Source: a bacterium (GTDB lineage Bacteria; Verrucomicrobiota; Kiritimatiellia; CAIKKV01; CAITUY01). Taken from it: a stretch of DNA of 64,000 nt. The notes beneath the pieces are model-generated. The model saw only the letters and a list, made by a program, of their open reading frames with translations, did no database searches and was not told the origin of the DNA. The stretch is from contig JBAXMJ010000001.1 in assembly GCA_037134355.1 (NCBI GenBank), positions 16,951 through 80,950 on the forward strand. Direction: 5' to 3'. A program made the translations under genes and the position numbers. This document shows, in pieces, positions 1 through 9,439 of the stretch; the stretch's first letter is position 1; every line of letters starts with the position of its first letter.

Positions 1-669
1 GCGGGCCACAAAAATTCCCAGAACCAATAAGACCACCCCGGCCAGAAACATCACTGGCTCCCCGCTGAGCCGGAACACGGGAACAAAGGGATCGCAGCGG
101 CAGATAATGAAAGCCGAGCCGGTCGCCGCCAGCAGAACCGCCACTCCAAGGTAACCCGCGGGAATCATTCCCAACGCCACTGACACAGGACGTGGCAACC
201 GTGTTGGAAAAAGAATCATCATTTCCTGGATCGCACCGAGCGGACATACCGCGGCGCAAAATACACGCCCGAAAAACAGGGCAAACACCAGCGGAAGAAT
301 AAAAAATGCCGCCACGCTCAGGGAAAGACCGACCTCACTCCCCGACAACCAGGCGGCAACATTCTGGATAGACCCGATGGAACAGACACACCCCTTACGC
401 CAAAACCCGAAATACAGGAGAGAAAATGCCGTAAGCAGAAATACCCCGCGCCGAGATCGCTTCTTCAGGATCAGCCAGGCGGCAAGGGATAAGGCGCCGA
501 TGAGGACCACGACATCCAGCATCTCAACCGTCGCGGCCCGGGGCGGGGGCGTGGTTGTCACCGGCATGGTGTAGCCGCTCTCGAACTGCGGCTGCGGGAA
601 GCGGTTTTCAGCGAAGGCCGCGAGCACCGGCATCAGTAAATAAAGAATGAGCGCTACGGTTCTCATCAT
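1..669 (-). CDS. NapH/MauN-like membrane-bound polyferredoxin; partial, C-terminus lies beyond the window start
   Basis: My own minus-strand translation from ATG at 669/666: MRTVALILYLLMPVLAAFA signal, several TM helices, a 'FGRVFCAAVCPLGAIQE' CxxCP motif and 'CRCDPF'. The start overlaps the upstream gene's stop in an ATGA arrangement. Not in the ORF track because it runs off the window edge. Confidence 0.5.
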   Translation of the reverse strand, partial: MMRTVALILYLLMPVLAAFAENRFPQPQFESGYTMPVTTTPPPRAATVEMLDVVVLIGALSLAAWLILKKRSRRGVFLLTAFSLLYFGFWRKGCVCSIGSIQNVAAWLSGSEVGLSLSVAAFFILPLVFALFFGRVFCAAVCPLGAIQEMMILFPTRLPRPVSVALGMIPAGYLGVAVLLAATGSAFIICRCDPFVPVFRLSGEPVMFLAGVVLLVLGIFVAR

Positions 670-1307
670 GACGCCGCGCTTTCCGAGCGGGGATTCAAAA
701 GATAGGGAGCCGTCGCCGGCACCTGCCGAAAGGCGTCTGACGGGCAATTTCGGGCAATGGAACACTCATTACAATTCACACACCGGTCATGCCGGACCTG
801 CAACACAAGCGAACTGTTGCCGAAGGCCGAGCAGCCCTTGACACACCGGCCACACCCGACACATAGAGATTCATCAATGGTGTATTCGTAATAAGGCTCC
901 TCAACGAATTTCCGCCGGATCGCACCGGTTGGGCAAATCTGATTTTCGGCGGCACTGGTGAGGGTTGTAGAACCTGGCTGAAAAAACCCGAAGCACAACC
1001 GGCAATAGCCGCACTGCTTGGGCCGATGGACACACTTCACAGCGGACGCCTGTAGCACGCACTGAGTGGCGCACCGTCCGCACTGGGTACATTTGGAGGG
1101 ATCCAACTGCCAGACCTTGTGGCCCGCCGAAAGAACGGCCGACGGACACGAGGCCAAATCCGGGCAACCCTTGCAGAGTTTCCACTGGTCGGGACTGCCG
1201 GATGAGTGGCACCGGCGCCCCAGCAGGGCCCGGGCACCCATGCCAGCCAATCCGGCCAGCAAAACCCCGCGCAGAAGAGTCCTTAGAAATTCACGCCGAC
1301 TTTGCAT
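666..1307 (-). CDS. Tat-exported multi-[4Fe-4S] ferredoxin, NapG/MauM-like
   Basis: Twin-arginine signal 'MQSRREFLRTLL'; four Cys clusters (CTQCGRCATQC, CGYCRLC..CP, CVGCGRCVKGC, CVNCNEC..CP). The ORF-track N-terminal extension (1308-1379) is a translated REP element, so the start was moved to MQSRR. Confidence 0.6.
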   Translation of the reverse strand: MQSRREFLRTLLRGVLLAGLAGMGARALLGRRCHSSGSPDQWKLCKGCPDLASCPSAVLSAGHKVWQLDPSKCTQCGRCATQCVLQASAVKCVHRPKQCGYCRLCFGFFQPGSTTLTSAAENQICPTGAIRRKFVEEPYYEYTIDESLCVGCGRCVKGCSAFGNSSLVLQVRHDRCVNCNECSIARNCPSDAFRQVPATAPYLLNPRSESAAS

Positions 1308-1343
1308 GGCTCCTGTTGTTTTAACTTCATTCATCATTTTTTC

Positions 1344-1410
1344 GTAGCATGGGCGTCTCGCCCATGATTTCCTTTTCATTACCCAATCACGGGCGAGACG
1401 CCCGTGCTAC
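1344..1410. repeat. REP pair: forward copy 1344-1366 GTAGCATGGGCGTCTCGCCCATG and inverted copy 1388-1410, forming a hairpin
   Basis: Same 23-nt palindromic unit as at 2346-2469 and 3086-3108. A conserved ATTTCC follows the forward copy. Confidence 0.8.
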
Positions 1411-1411
1411 A

Positions 1412-2335
1412 TCAATACACCCTGACACCATCACCCGACGGATCGAGCACAAGAATCCGCCCCTTAGAATCCACCGCCAGATCCAACCCGACAACAGCCT
1501 TCTCCCACTCCCGTGGTCCCGACATGACCCCGGCAAACCGCCCAGACGCATCATACCGTTTCACCCGGACAATATGCTTCTCGCTTGTTACAAAGGAACC
1601 ATCGGGTGCCAGAGCCATATTGCTCGGATTGCAGCACCCGCAAAAGCCGTCGTCATCGACCGAGGCCTTGCCCCATGAAGACAAAAACTGGCCGTCGGCC
1701 GTGAAATGTTCAAGGCGATGCATACCGGGGTTGACGACCCATAGCGAGCCATCAGGGGCCGTCGCAATATCAAAGAACGCGCTGGGCACCACAAAGCCCT
1801 CCGGGCGACGGGCGGGATCCTTGTCGCCGATCCGTCCGGACACCTCGCCCGCCAAGGTGAACCGCCACACGATCCGATTCTGGCAATCTGCGATGAACAC
1901 AAAGTTTGACGAGACGGCCACGGAGGTGATCATCGTTTTCGCACTCGGGCTTTTCCAGATCGCCTTACGGGTGCCGTCCGGGCCAAAGACTTCAATATGA
2001 TTGTCCAGCCCGGAAAAGATGTCGCCATTAGCCGACACCGCAAGGGCTCGCACGGGGCCCGAAACAGTAAAGGACAACAGGGACTGGCCAAGAACATCAA
2101 GGACTTCAATGCCGGCCTTTGACCCCACGACGATCCTGTCGGATGGCCCGACGGCCAGAGCCGTCACATTGGAGAGGACTGGCTTGATCCAGCGGGATCC
2201 GGATGAAAGGAGGCCATTCGCGGAGATTTTCTTGACCCCGCAGACATCATAGCGGCAATCAGCAGGAGAGACGCACTCGTTGCATCTCGCCCCCATCGGC
2301 CAACAAGCTGTCAAGGCCAGAATGAGCGCCAAACA
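1412..2335 (-). CDS. NHL-repeat / six-bladed beta-propeller lipoprotein; 5' end disrupted by or fused to the REP array
   Basis: h-region plus lipobox 'LALILALTAC' but no in-frame ATG/GTG n-region; the best start is TTG at 2335. Repeated beta-strand-rich modules follow. The ORF track shows it in-frame with the upstream RAYT (ORF 1412..3256). Confidence 0.5.
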   Translation of the reverse strand, partial: CLALILALTACWPMGARCNECVSPADCRYDVCGVKKISANGLLSSGSRWIKPVLSNVTALAVGPSDRIVVGSKAGIEVLDVLGQSLLSFTVSGPVRALAVSANGDIFSGLDNHIEVFGPDGTRKAIWKSPSAKTMITSVAVSSNFVFIADCQNRIVWRFTLAGEVSGRIGDKDPARRPEGFVVPSAFFDIATAPDGSLWVVNPGMHRLEHFTADGQFLSSWGKASVDDDGFCGCCNPSNMALAPDGSFVTSEKHIVRVKRYDASGRFAGVMSGPREWEKAVVGLDLAVDSKGRILVLDPSGDGVRVY

Positions 2336-2345
2336 TAATTTTCCC

Positions 2346-2469
2346 GTAGCATGGGCGTCCCGCCCATGTCCCTCCTCCTCCGTAGCATGGGCGTCCCGCC
2401 CATGTCCCTCCTCCTCCGTAGCATGGGCGTCCCGCCCATGATTTCCCACGGGCGGGACGCCCGTGCTAC
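2346..2469. repeat. Tandem REP array: three forward copies (2346, 2382, 2418) with a 13-nt TCCCTCCTCCTCC spacer, plus one inverted copy (2447-2469)
   Basis: A 36-nt period repeated exactly. The core 'CATGGGCGTCCCGCCCATG' is self-complementary. Forward and inverted copies differ by G/T changes compatible with G-U pairs in RNA. Confidence 0.85.
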
Positions 2470-2470
2470 A

Positions 2471-3055
2471 AAATGAACCAACCCATCGCCAAGAATGTAA
2501 TCCGGCTACAGCAGGATTTTCCACCACATAGCGAACCTGCCTATTAAAGTCATTTTCATCACGAATCAAGTGGTCATAATACTCGGGCTGCCAAAAATCG
2601 CCGCTTCGACCCAACAGGCAATTGGCTTTTTTTGATGTAAAGGATTTCCACGAATGAAGAATGTTTGACATCATATTTCCAGAAAAAGGCCGAACAACAA
2701 CATGCACGTGATTTGGCATGATACACCATGAATAAAGGGCGTATCTCTGCCCATCAAAACACTTCAGCGCAGCTTCAACGACTGTCGCAATGCGATCCTC
2801 GCGCAACCAACATTTTCCATGACCCGCATCCAACCATTTGTCAACCCGTTCTGAGTGTAATTCCTGAAGGCGTAAATGTTCCTCGTCAGTAAGTTCTCGC
2901 CCCAACATTTTGGCGGTTTTGACAATGTCTTCACGCTCATCCCTCCATGATTTCAACACTGACGTCGGCAACGAATCGTGTAATCGGAAGGTCACAGCAT
3001 AGACGGCTCCTTCTTGCGTCCAGTGAGGCAAATAAGCACCCTGAGAAAGTTTCAC
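2471..3055 (-). mobile_element. REP-associated tyrosine transposase (RAYT, IS200/IS605-like HuH-Y1); no in-frame stop before the REP array
   Basis: HuH motif 'MPNHVHVVV', catalytic-Tyr region 'FWQPEYYDHLIRDENDF', C-terminal 'NPAVAGL..WRW' (cf. E. coli YafM). The start is uncertain: GTG at 3055 or GTG at 3088 at the REP edge. Confidence 0.75.
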
Positions 3056-3085
3056 ATCTGCAAAAGGATTATACCCATGCTTTTC

Positions 3086-3165
3086 CACGGGCGGGACGCC
3101 CGTGCTACAGATTGCATTTTCTTTATTCATCCTAAATAACTGACGTCTCGCCCGTGCTACAGATT
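3086..3165. repeat. REP copy (inverted orientation, 3086-3108) plus a degenerate partial copy at 3147-3165; a local direct repeat GCCCGTGCTACAGATT occurs twice
   Basis: Identical to the 2447-2469 copy. Lies between the RAYT start and the stop of the upstream PQQ-like gene. Confidence 0.75.
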
Positions 3166-4625
3166 CACCGCACATCCAAACACCGCATCGTTCCGAAATC
3201 CCTGACCAGAAGGCGGCCATCCGCCAAAGCAAGGGGCGCCCAGGCTTCCTTACCATCCAGCACTCTGGCTTGAGCCAACTTCTGATACCCTTCCGGAGTA
3301 GCCCGAATCATGGTCAGCATTCCCTCGTCATCCAGGATCAGCAATTTTCCGTCAGCCACCATAAAGGGACCCAGCCCGAACCGATCCAAAGCCCCGCTGG
3401 TCCAAACGACCCGTCCATCGGGGTCCATGCACACGGCCTGCTTTCGCATGGCCCCGGCATCCGCTGGCAGCACAGTGTAGAGGTAGCCCTGATAAAAGAC
3501 CGGGGTATGCTGCTCACAGGCGAAGAGTTTCTTATCCACCTTCTTCAGGAGCTTTACAGAAAATCGCTCCCCCTCCTTGAGGATCTGAAACAGGGCGCTC
3601 CCTGCGCCGTAACCGGAGGTGATCCAGAAACGGCCATCACCCACCGGAACGGGCGTCGGGGCAACAACCTGAATATTCCACAGGTCGGTCTCCCAGAGCA
3701 CGGTTCCGGTATCCTGTGCTTCCGCAGAGACTCCGACAATCCCGCCAATTGCACAATATAGATACATTTTCTTCCCGGCGAATTCCATCGGCATGACGGA
3801 GGAATGCGACATCTTCCACTTCCGGGGATTGGGTGTTTCCCATAGCACTTTACCGGTTTCGCAATCCACCCCCGCCGGCCGCACCTTGCCCCCCACCCCG
3901 AGCACCACCTGGGTTCCGTCGATCAGGGGACATTGGCCGGTGTACCACATCGGCACTTCCACGCCCCAATTCCGCTCCAGATCCAGCCCCCACTTGAGAT
4001 CACCCGTCACAGCATCGGCGCACATCACATGACAGCGGGGCCCAATGGTGACCACATAACGATCCGTCACCGCGGGAACGGTGCGTGAAATTCCATGGTT
4101 CCGTTTGATTCTGACCTTGTACGAACGCCGCCAGATTTCACGCCCATCCTCCATCGAAAAACACCGAAGCGCATCCGCGCCTGCAGCACCTTCATAATCC
4201 AATACATAAACGCATCCGTTCCGGATTGCCGGACCGGCATAGCCTTCGCCGAGCGGGATAGACCACAGGCGGGGCGGGCCCCCAACAGGCCAGGAGTTGG
4301 CCAGTTTTTCAGAAGCTGGCGCCAGGTTGTCATGAGCGGCTCCGCGAAAGGAAGGCCATGATCCCGGCGCTTGTGAGGGCACCCCGGCATATCGGGAAAA
4401 GGTTTCGCCAATCCGGACGGGAGTCTCCGCCGCCGCTGCAGCCTGATCGGCACCTGAAGATTCGCCAGCCAGAGGAATCCGCCTGGCCGTGGATACACCC
4501 GAGAGCGTCCCTCGCCACCAGAGCAACGCGACCGCCGAAAGTAGCACCCCGATCAGTACAATCAGTACGGCAGGAAGAATGCCCCTCCCTCGCTGTCCAC
4601 CCTGAAAGATACCCGGGAATGCCAT
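3165..4625 (-). CDS. PQQ-like beta-propeller repeat protein with an N-terminal membrane anchor and Ala/Pro-rich linker
   Basis: TM helix 'ILPAVLIVLIGVLLSAVALLWW'; repeated W/G-containing blade motifs; paralog of the next gene. Start moved to MAFPG. Confidence 0.6.
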   Translation of the reverse strand: MAFPGIFQGGQRGRGILPAVLIVLIGVLLSAVALLWWRGTLSGVSTARRIPLAGESSGADQAAAAAETPVRIGETFSRYAGVPSQAPGSWPSFRGAAHDNLAPASEKLANSWPVGGPPRLWSIPLGEGYAGPAIRNGCVYVLDYEGAAGADALRCFSMEDGREIWRRSYKVRIKRNHGISRTVPAVTDRYVVTIGPRCHVMCADAVTGDLKWGLDLERNWGVEVPMWYTGQCPLIDGTQVVLGVGGKVRPAGVDCETGKVLWETPNPRKWKMSHSSVMPMEFAGKKMYLYCAIGGIVGVSAEAQDTGTVLWETDLWNIQVVAPTPVPVGDGRFWITSGYGAGSALFQILKEGERFSVKLLKKVDKKLFACEQHTPVFYQGYLYTVLPADAGAMRKQAVCMDPDGRVVWTSGALDRFGLGPFMVADGKLLILDDEGMLTMIRATPEGYQKLAQARVLDGKEAWAPLALADGRLLVRDFGTMRCLDVR

Positions 4626-4639
4626 AAGTTCAAGCGATC

Positions 4640-5848
4640 CTACTTGCCCAGATTCAGCGCAATAAGAGTCCCTTTGCTGTTGCGACAGTACAGAACACCC
4701 CGGCACAAGACCGGCGCCGTCCAGCAGGTTTTCTCCAACACTTTACGGGCAGAGGACACCTCTTCATATTTTTCAGGCGACGCCTTGATAATGAACAAAT
4801 CTCCATTTTCATTCAGGGCAATCAGGTGATTCCCCGCTGCTGAGAGCGACCCGAACCCGATGTTCTGACTCCATTTCTCAACGCCAGTTTTGAAATCCAT
4901 GCATTTCAGGGAACCGCCTCCCACATTACCATCGAACCCGTACAAAAACCCGTTGATCAGCACACAACTACTGAACTGGTTCTTCATGGTCTTGTTCTTC
5001 CAGACCTCTATGGGTGCCGGGCCCCGGACATCAATAACGGCGCCCGCGTTGTTATACCCAGAGGAAATGAACATGAGCCCGTCCGATACAATCGGGTCGG
5101 CCGCATTGACATCATACGAGGTCTTCCAGGGAATAGACCAGAGCTTGACACCCGTTTCCAGATCGACGCCATACAGTTCCTTTGCGCTGAACAAGGCCAG
5201 GCACTCCTTCCCTCCCGCAGAGAACTCAACTGGTGCGGCATACCCCCCTGTCCCTCCCGGACTGGACCATACTTTGGCGCCGGTATTCCGGTTCAAGACC
5301 ACCCCGTATTCACCTGCATTCACCAACAACATGTCGCCCTTGATCACCGGCGATCCGGAGAATCCCCACCCCAGGTTAACGGCACCGAATTCCTTCATCA
5401 GATTCTTGTTCCACTTGACCTCGCCGGTTACCGCATCCAGGCACAACAACAGTCCTACACGGCTCAGGGAATAGACCAGTTTGCCGTCCGTGGCGGGAGT
5501 AGCGCGCGGTCCGGGATAACTCCCCGCCTCGCACGGATAGGAATGTTTCCATAACGCCTTTCCATCCTTCAGGGAAAGGGCGTAAATCGTGTCTGTATTA
5601 TCCTTATTTCCAAAGGCAAACAGCCTGTCGCCCTTGATGGAAACGGCGGAATAACCCTCTCCGACTTCTGCTTTCCACAGGATTTTCGCTCCACCTTGAA
5701 GCGCAAGCGGATTCCATTGGGTTTCCCTGGAGATCCCGTCACGATTCGCCCCGCGGAACTGAGGCCAGTCATAGACCTCTGAACCTTGCACATGACCCGC
5801 AACAATCCATCCCGCCAACCCGATTGCCGTCATAGTCTTGAAACGCAT
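4640..5848 (-). CDS. Secreted PQQ-like beta-propeller repeat protein
   Basis: Signal peptide 'MRFKTMTAIGLAGWIVAGHVQG'; repeated blade motifs (WxxxxG...). Tandem paralog of 3165-4625. Confidence 0.6.
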   Translation of the reverse strand: MRFKTMTAIGLAGWIVAGHVQGSEVYDWPQFRGANRDGISRETQWNPLALQGGAKILWKAEVGEGYSAVSIKGDRLFAFGNKDNTDTIYALSLKDGKALWKHSYPCEAGSYPGPRATPATDGKLVYSLSRVGLLLCLDAVTGEVKWNKNLMKEFGAVNLGWGFSGSPVIKGDMLLVNAGEYGVVLNRNTGAKVWSSPGGTGGYAAPVEFSAGGKECLALFSAKELYGVDLETGVKLWSIPWKTSYDVNAADPIVSDGLMFISSGYNNAGAVIDVRGPAPIEVWKNKTMKNQFSSCVLINGFLYGFDGNVGGGSLKCMDFKTGVEKWSQNIGFGSLSAAGNHLIALNENGDLFIIKASPEKYEEVSSARKVLEKTCWTAPVLCRGVLYCRNSKGTLIALNLGK

Positions 5849-5897
5849 AATCGCCCTCCTGTTTGATCCGCCTCTGTTTCTACTAAAAGGTCTCACA

Positions 5898-6368
5898 CTA
5901 GAGGATTTCGATTATGATTACGATTAAGATTATGAGGCAATTCGACGACGTACTGGGCGAACAGGAACTCCACCCGGTGCCGGTCGCTGGGAAACGCTTC
6001 GGCCCGGTAACACCGACCACGGCTCGATCTAACTCCGCATGGGCCTTCACCAGTTTCGGCGGCATCGCCACGGGATCGTGCAAGTCGGCCAGCGTTGAAC
6101 CCGGGAATTCCTTCCGGACATCCAGAACTTTCTGCGCCGTCGCTTCCACCGCCGTTTTCTGCTTCTTCGTCACCGCCTGCGGCCAGGGGAGTTGTTGTAG
6201 ACGATGTCCTTGGAGTAATGTTCCGTTCATAACCTGTCTCGAACCATCACCATCGTTAGCAAATGTTATTTGTTCCGATGTGAACCCGTACGGCCTCCAT
6301 TTGTCCGAACGTCGAAAGTCAGGGTCCGAGCGGAACGCGAGGTAACCTGGACTTTCTGGTTCGATCAC
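5898..6368 (-). pseudogene. Fragment of an N6-adenine DNA methyltransferase (RM-system C-terminal region), truncated
   Basis: 'TLADLHDPVAMPPKLVKAHAELDRAV' matches the conserved C-terminal tail of type I/IIG DNA MTases. The upstream and downstream parts are non-homologous and low-complexity. Confidence 0.45.
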
Positions 6369-6619
6369 TTTTCGTAGATTTCCCGTCTGTGGCCGATTCG
6401 CAGGACAAGGACTTGTGTTTCCAAGATGGCATAAATGACACGGTAATCACCGACTCGGAATTTCCGCAAGCCGGCAAAATGCCCCTTTAGAACAGGATAA
6501 GAATCCGCGCGCGTGGCGAGATCCTTGTCGATCTTGTCGAGTATCCGCCTGGCTTCGGCTTTACCGAGGCTTGCGAGGTCTTTCGACACGCTCTTCTTGT
6601 AGGTGATTTCAAAGGCCAA
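6365..6619 (-). CDS. Type II toxin-antitoxin system RelE/ParE family toxin
   Basis: 84 aa with typical RelE/ParE features ('...YRVIYAI....LVLRIGHRREIY'); overlaps the upstream antitoxin by 11 nt. Confidence 0.75.
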   Translation of the reverse strand: MAFEITYKKSVSKDLASLGKAEARRILDKIDKDLATRADSYPVLKGHFAGLRKFRVGDYRVIYAILETQVLVLRIGHRREIYEK

Positions 6620-6827
6620 GGGATTTCCTCAATTCACGTCCGGACACAACCGCATCCTTTTGATCGCGCAGTCGGTCAAGGGCAATTTGGACATCGGCAA
6701 AATCCGCAATATAGGATTCCAATGCTCTTTGAATATGGAAGGAGCGGGGCCTTTCCGTTTCATCCGCAATATGGGTCAGTTCATTGGCCAGACCATCAGG
6801 TAATCGAATTGATACAGCAATACTCAT
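6609..6827 (-). CDS. Ribbon-helix-helix (CopG/ParD-like) antitoxin
   Basis: 72 aa with an N-terminal RHH ('SIRLPDGLANELTHIADETERPRSFHIQRALESYI'); immediately upstream of the toxin. Confidence 0.65.
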   Translation of the reverse strand: MSIAVSIRLPDGLANELTHIADETERPRSFHIQRALESYIADFADVQIALDRLRDQKDAVVSGRELRKSLGL

Positions 6828-6839
6828 GACATCTCCTCA

Positions 6840-6858
6840 TGTATTCTTCTGTAATACA
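6840..6858. promoter_or_regulatory. Inverted repeat TGTATTcttctgtAATACA directly upstream of the antitoxin start; putative auto-repression operator
   Basis: Perfect 6-bp arms 13 nt upstream of the RHH gene start, in an AT-rich promoter region. Confidence 0.35.
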
Positions 6859-7148
6859 GTGTATGCAATGCCATCATTATTGTCAATTCCATCTTTGTCT
6901 TGAAATCAAACGAATCTGTAAGCGATTACAATTCCTGTTTTAGAAGAAAGTATTTATAAAAACCTGCTGAAAACAGATGCTTTCAGTTTACATTTGCCGG
7001 TAATTAGCAGCTTGCCCAGGCGGAACGGGCTTTGAGGCTGTATTTTGTTAATTTCTCAAAGGACACCAGCCCGATGAAAACAGTGAACGGGAATATCGCC
7101 TATTTTCCCGCTTGCTTCCCCGGCAAAATTCATCTATTTGGCACACCC

Positions 7149-9275
7149 ATGAATACATGCAAAACACCCCCACCGAAGTTCATGATTCTGACCCTTGGAA
7201 CCATGGCGTTATCTCTGATACTCATCCCGAACGCCAAATCGGCCACCAACACGATTGAAACGGTCGTGGTCTCTGCGCGGCGCTGGACGGAACCACTTCA
7301 GTCGGTGCCAGGCGCGGTGACCGTTCAAAATGCCGACACGCTTCAATCAGCTGGCATTCGGGATCTTCGCGATGCTGCCCCCAAAGTGCCAAATCTGACG
7401 CTGGGGGATTTCTCCGTGCGACGCCTCACCTTCCCCTATATGCGGGGCATCGGATCGGGCCGCAACAGCCCCGCTGTCACCACGATCATTGATGGCGTCC
7501 CCCAGCTCTCCTACGCCACCGCCAATCAGGAACTGCTCGATGTCGAGCGGATTGAATTCCTGCGCGGTGCTCAGGGTTCCCTGTATGGCCGCAACACACT
7601 CGGCGGCGCCATCAACATTGTCCCCCATCTGCCCACCCGGGATCCCGCCGCTTCCTTCAGCCTCGCTACCGGAAGTGAAAATTTCTTTGACGCCCGTGCC
7701 TCCAGCGAGGGGCCTCTCGGCACCGATAAAGCCGCCGGTAGTGCAAGCGCTGGCTATTCCCGCCGCGATGGATATACCCACAATGACATCACAGGCAACC
7801 GGCTGGACGGTCGCGAATCGTTCTTCGGCCGCGCTCAGATGCTCTGGCCCGACGAAGGACCGTGGACCTATCGTCTCAGTGCCGGCGGTGAAGTGGATCG
7901 CGATGGCGACTACGGGTTGGGCGATCTGGCGACCATCCGTTCCAAACCCCATCATGTTGCCCATGATTATGAAGGCAGCTCGGAACGCGATCTGGCGCAA
8001 CCGGTCTTTACCGCAACACGTAAAGGTGACAAGGCCGATTTTGTTTCAACCACGGCCTTTCAATGGTGGCGTTCCCATGACAGGACCGACCTGGATGCCA
8101 CCCCTGCCGACCTGATTCGCCGTGACAATGAGGAGAATCAACAGGCGACTATCGAGGAACTCCGCTTCATGTCGCCTGAGAACGCCCCGGTCACGCTCGG
8201 AGATCATCTGAGTCTCCGCTGGCTGCTCGGCGCCCTAGCGTTCCACTCGTCCTATTCCCAACGCGCCTTCAACGATTACCGGCCCGGCTCTGTCGCGATG
8301 CTCGGCCTTCCGTTCCCTTTTCAGCAGCATGATGATGCCGATCTTGCCGACACCGGACTGAGCCTCTTTGGGCACACCACGCTCACTCTGGATGAACGAT
8401 GGGAACTCGGCCTCGGTATCCGGGATGATTATGAACACCGGTCAGCCGACCGCCGGAGTTACGCCTCCATTCCCCTGATGCCGGCCTCGGGCGCGGACGA
8501 CAGCGCCGATTTCAACCAGATCAGCCCGCGCACCTCGCTCGGTTATCACCTTACGAAAAACGCCTTTGTCTACGGGGAAGCCTCAAAAGGATATAAGGCT
8601 GGCGGATTCAATACCCTGGCGATTCCCGGCCACGCCACCTATGGCGATGAAAACAGCTGGACCTATGAGACCGGACTTAAAACAGACTGGTTGAGCCGCC
8701 GCGTAACAGCCAACCTCGCCTTGTTCCACACCGACTGGAACGACCTGCAGATGGATGTCCCGACAGGTTCTCCCGGCGTCTTCTATCTCGACAACACCAG
8801 CAAGGCCGAAAGTCAGGGCGGTGAACTCGAACTGACAATCCGTCCAGTGAGCGGACTCAGCCTGTTCGGCGGACTGGGCGTCCTCTCCACCGAATTCGGA
8901 CAAGGCAGCACCACCGCCGGAATGGATGTCAGTGGCAACGACCTGCCCTTTGCCCCGCGCACAACCTGGAACGCCGGCACGGAGTACAGTCAGACGTTGC
9001 GCGGGCGCGCCATCGGCTTTATCCGGATTGAGGGTGTTGGAACCGGCCGCTATCAGTACGACGCCCTCAATGGGGCTTCCCAATCCAGTTATGCCCTGGT
9101 TAACACCCGCGTAGGTATGGCCAATGGAAGCTGGCGTGTCGAGGCCTGGGTGAAAAACCTGTTCGATAAGGATTATGTTCCCCTCGCCTTCTCCTACCCG
9201 CTTGCACCCTCGGGCTACATCGGGGAGAGCGGCACACCCCGAACCCTTGGCGTCTCCCTTGCCCGTTCGTTCTAA
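7149..9275 (+). CDS. TonB-dependent outer-membrane receptor
   Basis: Signal peptide, TonB-box-like 'ETVVVSA', plug and 22-strand barrel region, C-terminal '...SLARSF' terminal Phe. Start chosen at MNTCK; the ORF track begins at 7032. Confidence 0.8.
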   Translation: MNTCKTPPPKFMILTLGTMALSLILIPNAKSATNTIETVVVSARRWTEPLQSVPGAVTVQNADTLQSAGIRDLRDAAPKVPNLTLGDFSVRRLTFPYMRGIGSGRNSPAVTTIIDGVPQLSYATANQELLDVERIEFLRGAQGSLYGRNTLGGAINIVPHLPTRDPAASFSLATGSENFFDARASSEGPLGTDKAAGSASAGYSRRDGYTHNDITGNRLDGRESFFGRAQMLWPDEGPWTYRLSAGGEVDRDGDYGLGDLATIRSKPHHVAHDYEGSSERDLAQPVFTATRKGDKADFVSTTAFQWWRSHDRTDLDATPADLIRRDNEENQQATIEELRFMSPENAPVTLGDHLSLRWLLGALAFHSSYSQRAFNDYRPGSVAMLGLPFPFQQHDDADLADTGLSLFGHTTLTLDERWELGLGIRDDYEHRSADRRSYASIPLMPASGADDSADFNQISPRTSLGYHLTKNAFVYGEASKGYKAGGFNTLAIPGHATYGDENSWTYETGLKTDWLSRRVTANLALFHTDWNDLQMDVPTGSPGVFYLDNTSKAESQGGELELTIRPVSGLSLFGGLGVLSTEFGQGSTTAGMDVSGNDLPFAPRTTWNAGTEYSQTLRGRAIGFIRIEGVGTGRYQYDALNGASQSSYALVNTRVGMANGSWRVEAWVKNLFDKDYVPLAFSYPLAPSGYIGESGTPRTLGVSLARSF

Positions 9276-9292
9276 CCGAACGCCGATCACCC

Positions 9293-9390
9293 CTTCAGGG
9301 TAGGGAGGCCTCTCCGAGGCCTCCGCAGGCAGAATGGGTGATATTGACCAGTCGACAGCGGAGGCCTCGGAGAGGCCTCCCTACCCTGAA
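9293..9390. terminator. Very long near-perfect palindrome (about 34-nt arms, about 30-nt loop); probable bidirectional terminator or structured element
   Basis: CTTCAGGGTAGGGAGGCCTCTCCGAGGCCTCCGC ... GCGGAGGCCTCGGAGAGGCCTCCCTACCCTGAAG. Each arm contains the nested palindrome GAGGCCTC. No T-tract. Confidence 0.45.
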
Positions 9391-9439
9391 GAATCTTCTG
9401 TGCTTGCCTTAGGACCGTCACTTCTGAACAATCCAGCCC

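Follow-up and report, generated by a model that had tools for sequence, protein, structure and literature searches.

Repetitive extragenic palindromes (REPs) and REP-associated tyrosine transposases (RAYTs) are usually seen as ancient systems, in which the transposase gene is single-copy, vertically inherited and itself immobile. The REPINs of Pseudomonas fluorescens, with which the names of Bertels and Rainey and the year 2011 are associated, are said to consist of two inverted REPs with a short spacer that form one long hairpin. In Escherichia coli, the REPtron comprises the RAYT known as TnpA_REP (YafM; Protein Data Bank (PDB) entry 4ER8) and its flanking REPs or bacterial interspersed mosaic elements (BIMEs) (Nunvar 2010; Ton-Hoang 2012; Messing 2012, summarised in PMC6006769). 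Among the TnpAY1 proteins, subclass 2.7 is characterised by the motifs [ND]HVH, WQ and YI[LR][NQ]NP, by replacement of E100 by D (seen also in subclass 2.5), by a median length of 213 aa and by long canonical GT[AG]G REPs (PMC6006769). In the passages of Di Nocera et al. 2013 (PMC3733652) cited here, the GTAG-19 REP family of Opitutus terrae encodes the in-frame peptides GTGVPPV and HGRHARAT, and GTAG REPs are also recorded in Planctomyces and Rhodopirellula. Here we describe a locus of this kind in a 64-kb stretch of a Kiritimatiellia genome (contig JBAXMJ010000001.1), which we refer to as the window and in whose coordinates all positions are given. We conclude that the locus is very probably a REPtron, made up of one gene for a TnpA_REP-type HUH/Y1 single-stranded DNA (ssDNA) transposase and copies of the 23-nt hairpin that it recognises. 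An earlier note made from the sequence alone had read the locus in the same way, and this reading is supported by profile matches, by the relationship to 4ER8 in both sequence and structure, and by the same flanking arrangement in homologues. The host that it had supposed, a bacterium of the Planctomycetes–Verrucomicrobia–Chlamydiae (PVC) type, is also reasonable: the nearest named relatives of the valyl-tRNA synthetase (65–67% identity) belong to Verrucomicrobiota, Kiritimatiellae and Lentisphaerae.

The window was searched on both strands with the pattern GTAGCAYGGGCGTCCCGCCCRTG, up to three mismatches being allowed, and 100 dinucleotide-preserving shuffles served as the control. Seven full copies of the 23-mer GTAGCAYGGGCGTCYCGCCCRTG, each with at most one mismatch, and one decayed copy were located, all within 1344–3160 (Table 1). 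This agrees with the earlier count of at least eight copies restricted to 1.8 kb, since the rest of the 64-kb window holds no further copy; the shuffles gave no match, and none is expected by chance. Three of the copies are exact tandem repeats with a 13-nt spacer, as had been proposed, and Tandem Repeats Finder reports the array at 2344–2440 with a period of 36, 2.7 copies and 100% matches. Read on the strand of the gene, the array spacers are GGAGGAGGAGGGA.

Folded as ssDNA, each full REP forms an 8-bp stem with a 3-nt loop and leaves the 5′ GTAG unpaired (−9.2 to −10.4 kcal/mol, z about −5). All copies on the plus strand have the form CATG...CATG and all those on the minus strand CACG...CGTG, the two differing positions compensating one another within each palindrome. 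When a plus copy is paired with a minus copy, one of these positions gives a G·T wobble and the other an A·C mismatch; the suggestion that forward and inverted copies differ only by changes that would still pair as G–U therefore holds at one position but fails at the other. The inverted doublet at 1344–1410 is predicted to form one long hairpin (−27.2 kcal/mol, z −11, on one strand and −27.5 kcal/mol, z −10, on the other), and the inverted pair at 2418–2469 folds into a single hairpin within the array. Both doublets thus have the make-up of a REPIN, and the two lie within 1.1 kb, with none in the other 71 kb scanned. Beyond the REPs themselves, no longer terminal inverted repeats surround the unit, so that the palindromes do not turn out to be parts of a longer insertion sequence (IS) with ends of its own. 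A search of Rfam returned only sub-threshold matches to generic hairpins (miRNA precursors, ar14 and CcsR1), those to ar14 and CcsR1 arising because the array spacer reads CCUCCUCC on the opposite strand.

The eighth REP site was recovered through the first 12 nt of the repeat, GTAGCAYGGGCG, at 3149–3160 on the minus strand. The earlier note had a degenerate copy at 3147; the copy exists, but the remnant spans about 3139–3160 and has its end at 3160. Its right arm is eroded and it does not fold (−0.8 kcal/mol). An exact 17-nt direct repeat, CGCCCGTGCTACAGATT, at 3097–3113 and 3149–3165 indicates that this remnant is a partial duplicate of the neighbouring REP (3086–3108) together with its 5′ flank, AATCT.

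The gene bracketed by the REPs encodes a transposase with an HVH motif, as had been anticipated. Its product matches both Pfam Y1_Tnp (PF01797; 27.9 bits, cut-off 23) and the NCBIfam equivalog for REP-associated tyrosine transposases, NF047646 (REP_Tyr_transpos; a marginal 80.5 bits, cut-off 80), the two kinds of profile against which the earlier note had proposed that it be checked. A sequence search of the PDB returned a sole match, 4ER8 (E 2.7e-6). An AlphaFold (AF2) model was obtained from an alignment of 50 sequences (the query and 49 homologues) with a predicted local distance difference test score (pLDDT) of 83.8, and a fold search with this model gave 4ER8 as the top PDB match, followed by the ISDra2, IS200 and IS608 transposases. 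Residues W94, Q95, H101 and R104 of 4ER8 are retained in the RAYT and E100 is replaced by D, all of them inside FWQPEYYDHLIRD. In the E. coli protein, the W94–R104 segment is the GTAG-contact region and N119 is a metal ligand four residues past the catalytic tyrosine (Quentin et al. 2018, PMC6006769). Y115 and N119 align with the Y and N of RYVVENP, which by this alignment are the putative catalytic tyrosine and third metal ligand of the RAYT. The motif EYYDHLIRD, previously taken for the catalytic tyrosine motif, aligns instead with the W94–R104 segment that recognises GTAG. Across the family alignment of 50 sequences, all 41 of the 41 invariant columns are retained in the RAYT, including HVH, W-Q, D-H..R and Y...NP.

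Table 1. Features of the REP–RAYT locus, in window coordinates
Feature	Positions	Strand	Remarks
Inverted REP doublet (REPIN-like)	1344–1410		Arms 1344–1366 (+) and 1388–1410 (−); loop variant TCT; between NHL stop and Fer4 start
NHL-repeat protein gene	1412–2332	−	Ancestral ATG and first four codons overwritten by end of REP array; candidate new start TTG 2332
Uninterrupted open reading frame	1412–3256	−	RAYT through REP array into NHL; in GenBank one 614-aa 'transposase', MEI6786854.1
Tandem array of three REPs	2344–2440	+	REPs 2346–2368, 2382–2404 and 2418–2440; identical 13-nt spacers; period 36 nt = 12 codons
REP directly downstream of RAYT	2447–2469	−	On coding strand; inverted doublet (REPIN-like) with 2418–2440, spacer 6 nt
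RAYT (TnpA_REP-type HUH/Y1 transposase) core	2471–3055	−	195 aa; likely start GTG 3055 (MKLSQGAYLPHW...), alternative ATG 3130
REP directly upstream of RAYT	3086–3108	−	On coding strand, GTAGCACGGGCGTCCCGCCCGTG; homologues have a REP at the equivalent place
Decayed REP	3139–3160	−	GTAGCACGGGCG, then degenerate right arm; begins 4 nt past TGA (3167–3165) of upstream PQQ gene

Homologues of the RAYT are numerous, 3732 being found at E ≤ 1e-5, the best of them 60–63% identical. Many are labelled RayT or transposase at source, and they come from metagenome-assembled genomes (MAGs) of Hydrogenedentes, Terriglobia and Phycisphaerae, among others. The homologue cores extend from ...GAYLPHW to ...W.WVG, and translated REPs lengthen the reading frame at the N-terminus in 43 and at the C-terminus in 37 of 100 parseable homologues (GTGVPPV, HGQDGHAT, VARASRP). 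Many of the proteins end in ...WVGVARASRP, their last seven codons and the stop coming from the REP. The DNA around six homologues, four of which belong to MAGs labelled Terriglobia, Phycisphaeraceae, Hydrogenedentes and Verrucomicrobia, carries GT[AG]GCAYGG..CCRTG hairpins immediately on either side of the gene, mostly on the coding strand, with inverted doublets nearby. The inner stem pairs vary among these genomes, always with compensation. Since all six loci share the flanking hairpins, REP–RAYT–REP is the normal state of this family. One of the homologues (P0004; L131–L137) sits inside a type I restriction–modification locus, with hsdS on one side and, on the other, a PIN-domain gene that lies downstream of hsdM, where five REP doublets, each composed of a GGGCG-stem REP and a GGGCA-stem REP, occur in 8.7 kb. 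On a Phycisphaeraceae contig (L141), a gene for a 150-aa IS200-type Y1_Tnp protein (4019–4471) is found 5.5 kb from a RAYT homologue, so the two kinds of Y1 transposase coexist there.

Two loci from relatives, L126 and L129, have the host operon without the element. Their gene order is TonB-dependent receptor, PQQ (402 aa), PQQ (486 aa), NHL (318 aa), Fer4 (222 aa), Fer4_5, PQQ and NuoF-like; their NHL proteins are 80–82% identical to that of the window, the PQQ and NHL genes are separated by 10 nt, the NHL and Fer4 genes overlap by 4 nt, and neither RAYT nor REP is present in 13 kb. Comparison of the window with these loci by blastn reveals that 5935–3167, 2277–1415 and 1334–1 align at 84–92% identity and that nothing aligns between. 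From these breaks in homology and the empty sites, the block 3166–2278, which comprises the RAYT, the REPs and an NHL N-terminus that has diverged, and the doublet 1410–1344 are insertions at two successive junctions, the former between the PQQ and NHL genes in the orientation of the operon and the latter at the next junction 1 kb downstream. The RAYT core has a GC content of 46.2% (44% at third codon positions) as against 54–59% (63–68%) in four neighbouring genes, which places it in the lowest 0.9% of segments of equal size. Taken together, the empty sites and the base composition indicate that the RAYT and its hairpins reached the locus after the split from the L126 and L129 lineages, and the origin of the block probably lies outside the host lineage.

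The host operon (window 1–9275), common to the relatives, encodes two PQQ-like beta-propellers, the NHL-repeat protein, an RnfB-like Fer4 protein with a twin-arginine signal, a Fer4_5 protein, a third PQQ propeller and a NuoF-like flavoprotein. An unrelated GTAG-tagged inverted doublet closely follows the TonB-dependent receptor gene, at 9291–9393, with GTAGGGAGGCCTCTCCGAGGCCTCC at 9300 on the plus strand and at 9360–9384 on the minus strand. The arms of this doublet reach about 34 nt; its two copies are the only ones in the window, and none is present in any locus fetched. It may belong to another REP family having its own RAYT elsewhere.

The insertion has altered the reading frames on its downstream side. 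The RAYT frame has no stop codon of its own and runs on through the array into the NHL gene (Table 1); whereas NHL orthologues begin MSGTGKL or MNRVGK, the window has ...DAHATGKL. Translation of the NHL protein may restart at the TTG codon. The fusion recurs in an independent assembly of a second strain (P0380, 576 aa), where the array comprises two units and the spacer, with one extra GAG, is 16 nt long; an assembly chimera is thus an unlikely source of the block. The arrays of the two strains differ by 33 nt and the frame is kept, which needs no selection because the array unit is 36 nt long and the spacer is a triplet repeat. A scan of metagenomes with the NHL protein found one 1.4-kb contig only, from the same strain and 100% identical, and no variant of the site. 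A short-read contig of the same strain (L145, ENA k141_920201) ends at window position 2319, just past the array end (2344), and a JGI contig spans only 548–1990; the REP array evidently breaks short-read assemblies. On the minus strand, the array spacer GGAGGAGGAGGGA and the CATG of the next REP (2369–2417) create a strong Shine–Dalgarno-like run 1 nt before an ATG, which opens a short out-of-frame reading frame at 2311–2481 (MGGTPMLRRRRD repeats) ending within the 5′ region of NHL. The native ribosome-binding site of NHL in the relatives is GGGAGGA, from which the array spacer may derive.

The distribution of the REP was examined by scanning one genome per species for the exact pattern in 8-kb blocks. 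It is present in at least 120 blocks from MAGs named for at least eight phyla, often on several contigs per genome. Among the matches listed are Planctomycetota (many Phycisphaerae and Tepidisphaerales), Verrucomicrobiota, Kiritimatiellia, Armatimonadota, Acidobacteriota, Hydrogenedentota, Sumerlaeia, Zixibacteria, Ignavibacteria and others. Mis-binning cannot account for all of these MAGs, as some of the REPs are on long contigs (125 kb to 1.4 Mb). A RAYT was detected by tblastn or by the family hidden Markov model (HMM) in one of the 120 REP-bearing blocks listed (L022); in 58 of the listed blocks, the REP is flanked on each side by 1.5 kb of sequence or more. Outside the REP itself, the listed blocks show no match to the window. 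REPs of this type disperse without the gene and in other genomes are almost always far from any RAYT. The confinement of the REP to its locus, asserted in the earlier note, is accordingly shown for the window and the adjoining 9.3 kb, and in other genomes this REP is scattered. Among 2.9 million viral contigs there were ten REP matches and no RAYT, hence no evidence for a phage vector, and a full-text literature search with the REP sequence found no relevant paper.

These matches also bear on the hairpin itself. In the 154 exact-pattern copies listed, the CATG..CATG and CACG..CGTG forms predominate and mixed forms are rare, and the loop, whose orientation is fixed, reads TCC or TCT. When sites were collected by the left arm only, 89 of the 133 listed form at least seven of the eight Watson–Crick pairs, and the stem varies in a compensatory way at pairs 3, 6 and 8, through G–C/A–T and G–C/C–G exchanges. 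As the stem variants compensate and mixed forms are rare, the REP hairpin appears to be under selection. Longer tandem REP arrays occur in other genomes (L141 9689–9911, L092, L035 and L097), with periods of 100, 29 and 48 nt, and among these are also head-to-tail REPs with a single A between them (GTG-A-GTAG).

By analogy with E. coli TnpA_REP, the RAYT would bind the 8-bp REP hairpin on ssDNA, and the unpaired 5′ GTAG would be read by the conserved W-Q...D-H..R segment. The enzyme would then cut and rejoin the DNA nearby by means of an HVH-bound metal and the tyrosine of RYVVENP, and this reaction could both multiply and move the REPs and the inverted doublets, or REPINs. The RAYT with its flanking REPs entered the redox operon as a compositionally foreign insertion, a further doublet having landed one junction downstream.

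Several observations weigh against a REPtron of the classical type. The NCBIfam score is barely at its threshold and both profiles span the C-terminal half of the protein only, which is accounted for by an insertion of about 55 aa, forming two helices after the first strand of the model, in the N-terminal half, and absent from 4ER8. The RAYT product may be aberrant, since the reading frame has no stop codon and continues into the next gene. A REP population spread over the genome is the hallmark of classical REP/RAYT systems; here REPs are seen only as a local cluster in the 73 kb scanned, since the 9.3 kb past the window start have no further copies and about 71 kb outside the locus are empty. 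Finally, the flanks of the empty-site genomes are only 85–92% identical to the window, so that the exact junctions, the target sequence and the order of events cannot be read from them.

A broader proposal is that this RAYT subclass represents a still-mobile REPtron that moves between phyla as a unit and is not a domesticated, vertically inherited gene. We advance it tentatively and regard it as rather doubtful. It would explain why the 23-nt hairpin is identical in MAGs of at least eight phyla when the proteins are only 44–63% identical, and it is in keeping with the recent appearance of the gene and hairpins in the operon, with the replaced start codon of the neighbour and with a fusion array whose length varies in multiples of three.

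Of the other explanations, the one that fares best, although we judge it unlikely, is an autonomous IS200/IS605-like insertion sequence, in which the hairpins 3108–3086 and 2469–2447 would be the left and right ends of a 0.7-kb unit moving as ssDNA ('peel and paste') and the other REPs would be by-products. Its occurrence at a site that is empty in the relatives and its foreign composition do imply that the gene itself moved, and not the REPs alone; in other genomes, however, the listed REPs are overwhelmingly gene-free. At this locus and at most of those of homologues, a coding-strand REP stands on either side of the gene, much as IS200/IS605 ends do, but where such an element would be expected in several near-identical units with distinct end hairpins, we find one copy in 73 kb and two flanking hairpins that are identical. 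The fold is common to IS200/IS605 transposases, yet the best match by sequence and by fold is TnpA_REP and not an IS transposase. The distribution of subclass 2.7 is patchy and suggestive of horizontal gene transfer (HGT) (Quentin et al. 2018, PMC6006769); on the other side, two homologues, P0004 on its 21 contigs and P0070 on its 23, are each found in one genomic context only and give no hint of multiple copies, and the nearest relative of the RAYT in 5.8 billion proteins, the same-locus strain variant aside, is just 63% identical. The block may also have arrived through recombination of a larger transferred segment.

It seems to us improbable that the hairpins are mainly host RNA or DNA structures and the RAYT a decaying, inactive passenger. 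In enterobacteria, REPs serve host roles as mRNA stabilisers, attenuators, and gyrase or IHF (integration host factor) sites (summarised in PMC3733652), and in the window every copy occupies a junction between genes of a single operon, with which it would be transcribed. Nevertheless, the relatives run this operon without hairpins at these junctions, and the only hairpin with a T-run picked out by the terminator scan is on the other strand from the genes. The loss of the RAYT's own stop codon and the absence of other REP copies in 73 kb might be expected of a decaying passenger, but every invariant family residue is kept, and the length of the array differs between strains, as it would for an active or unstable repeat. 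A small CRISPR-like array or a chance cluster of palindromes can be set aside with near certainty: the palindromic repeat does recur at a regular 36-nt spacing, but the spacers all have one and the same sequence of just 13 nt, which rules out a CRISPR array, single and inverted copies exist as well, the chance expectation is zero, Rfam gave nothing above threshold and no cas genes were identified among the neighbours examined (Fer4, NHL, RAYT, two PQQ and the TonB-dependent receptor).

Overall, the REPtron at this locus belongs to a known kind of element and leaves the general picture of such elements unchanged. The earlier note had considered REP/RAYT systems to be sparsely documented in PVC bacteria; in the cited passages of PMC3733652, GTAG REPs and RAYTs are already recorded in Opitutus terrae, Planctomyces and Rhodopirellula, and this type of REP thus appears already to have a PVC host. 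Most useful are the evidence from the empty sites and the fact that the hairpin is conserved exactly in different phyla. The former, with the foreign composition, is direct evidence that the RAYT gene arrived and not the repeats only, and its local consequences are a divided operon, the loss of a start codon to overwriting and a GenBank entry for a 614-aa chimeric 'transposase'. The latter would suit the family as a test case for the co-evolution of RAYTs and REPs.

Compared with the IS200/IS605 elements IS608 and ISDra2, the window element has the same HUH/Y1 catalytic core, same-strand hairpins at both ends of the gene, no classical terminal inverted repeats and no visible target duplication. 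It differs in that its two hairpins are one sequence and not distinct ends, in the RAYT-specific features of its protein and in showing no multi-copy behaviour. Its doublets 1344–1410 and 2418–2469 fold as long hairpins, as REPINs of P. fluorescens do, but the spacers are shorter (21 and 6 nt, respectively), the arms are two compensated variants, and there are two doublets in 73 kb.

The likeness to the E. coli REPtron is closer. TnpA_REP shares the HUH/Y1 fold and is the sole sequence relative in the PDB as well as the best structural match; W94, Q95, H101, R104, Y115 and N119 recur in the RAYT, the hairpin leaves its 5′ GTAG unpaired, and REPs, inverted doublets included, lie on both sides of the gene. 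However, the window RAYT is only about 16–25% identical to the E. coli protein, has the two-helix insertion of about 55 aa and carries D in place of E100, and the REP stem is a perfect, bulge-free 8 bp. Moreover, the gene is an apparently recent insertion inside an operon and does not occupy a stable locus, and its REPs are known only at that locus in the 73 kb scanned.

The window family resembles subclass 2.7 in its motifs, length and REP type, the features on which the comparison was made. Its members have NHVH, WQ and Y[IV]xxNP (YVVENP in the window), D at the position of E100, homologues of about 205–215 aa, variable N-termini, C-termini without a conserved tail domain, long canonical GT[AG]G REPs and a patchy occurrence across phyla. 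Subclass 2.7 was described from 36 members, mainly cyanobacterial (PMC6006769), whereas the window family exceeds 3700, many of them from Planctomycetota, Acidobacteriota, Hydrogenedentota and PVC MAGs. As regards the REP itself, GTAG-19 of O. terrae, as presented in the cited passages, appears to have the same type of hairpin and shares a PVC host and REPs in frame within genes, its peptides GTGVPPV and HGRHARAT corresponding to STGVPPV and HGRDAHAT in the window; in those passages the O. terrae copies are mostly GTGG, unlike the window REP. With nucleotide identity deduced from the peptides alone, the window REP appears to match GTAG-19.

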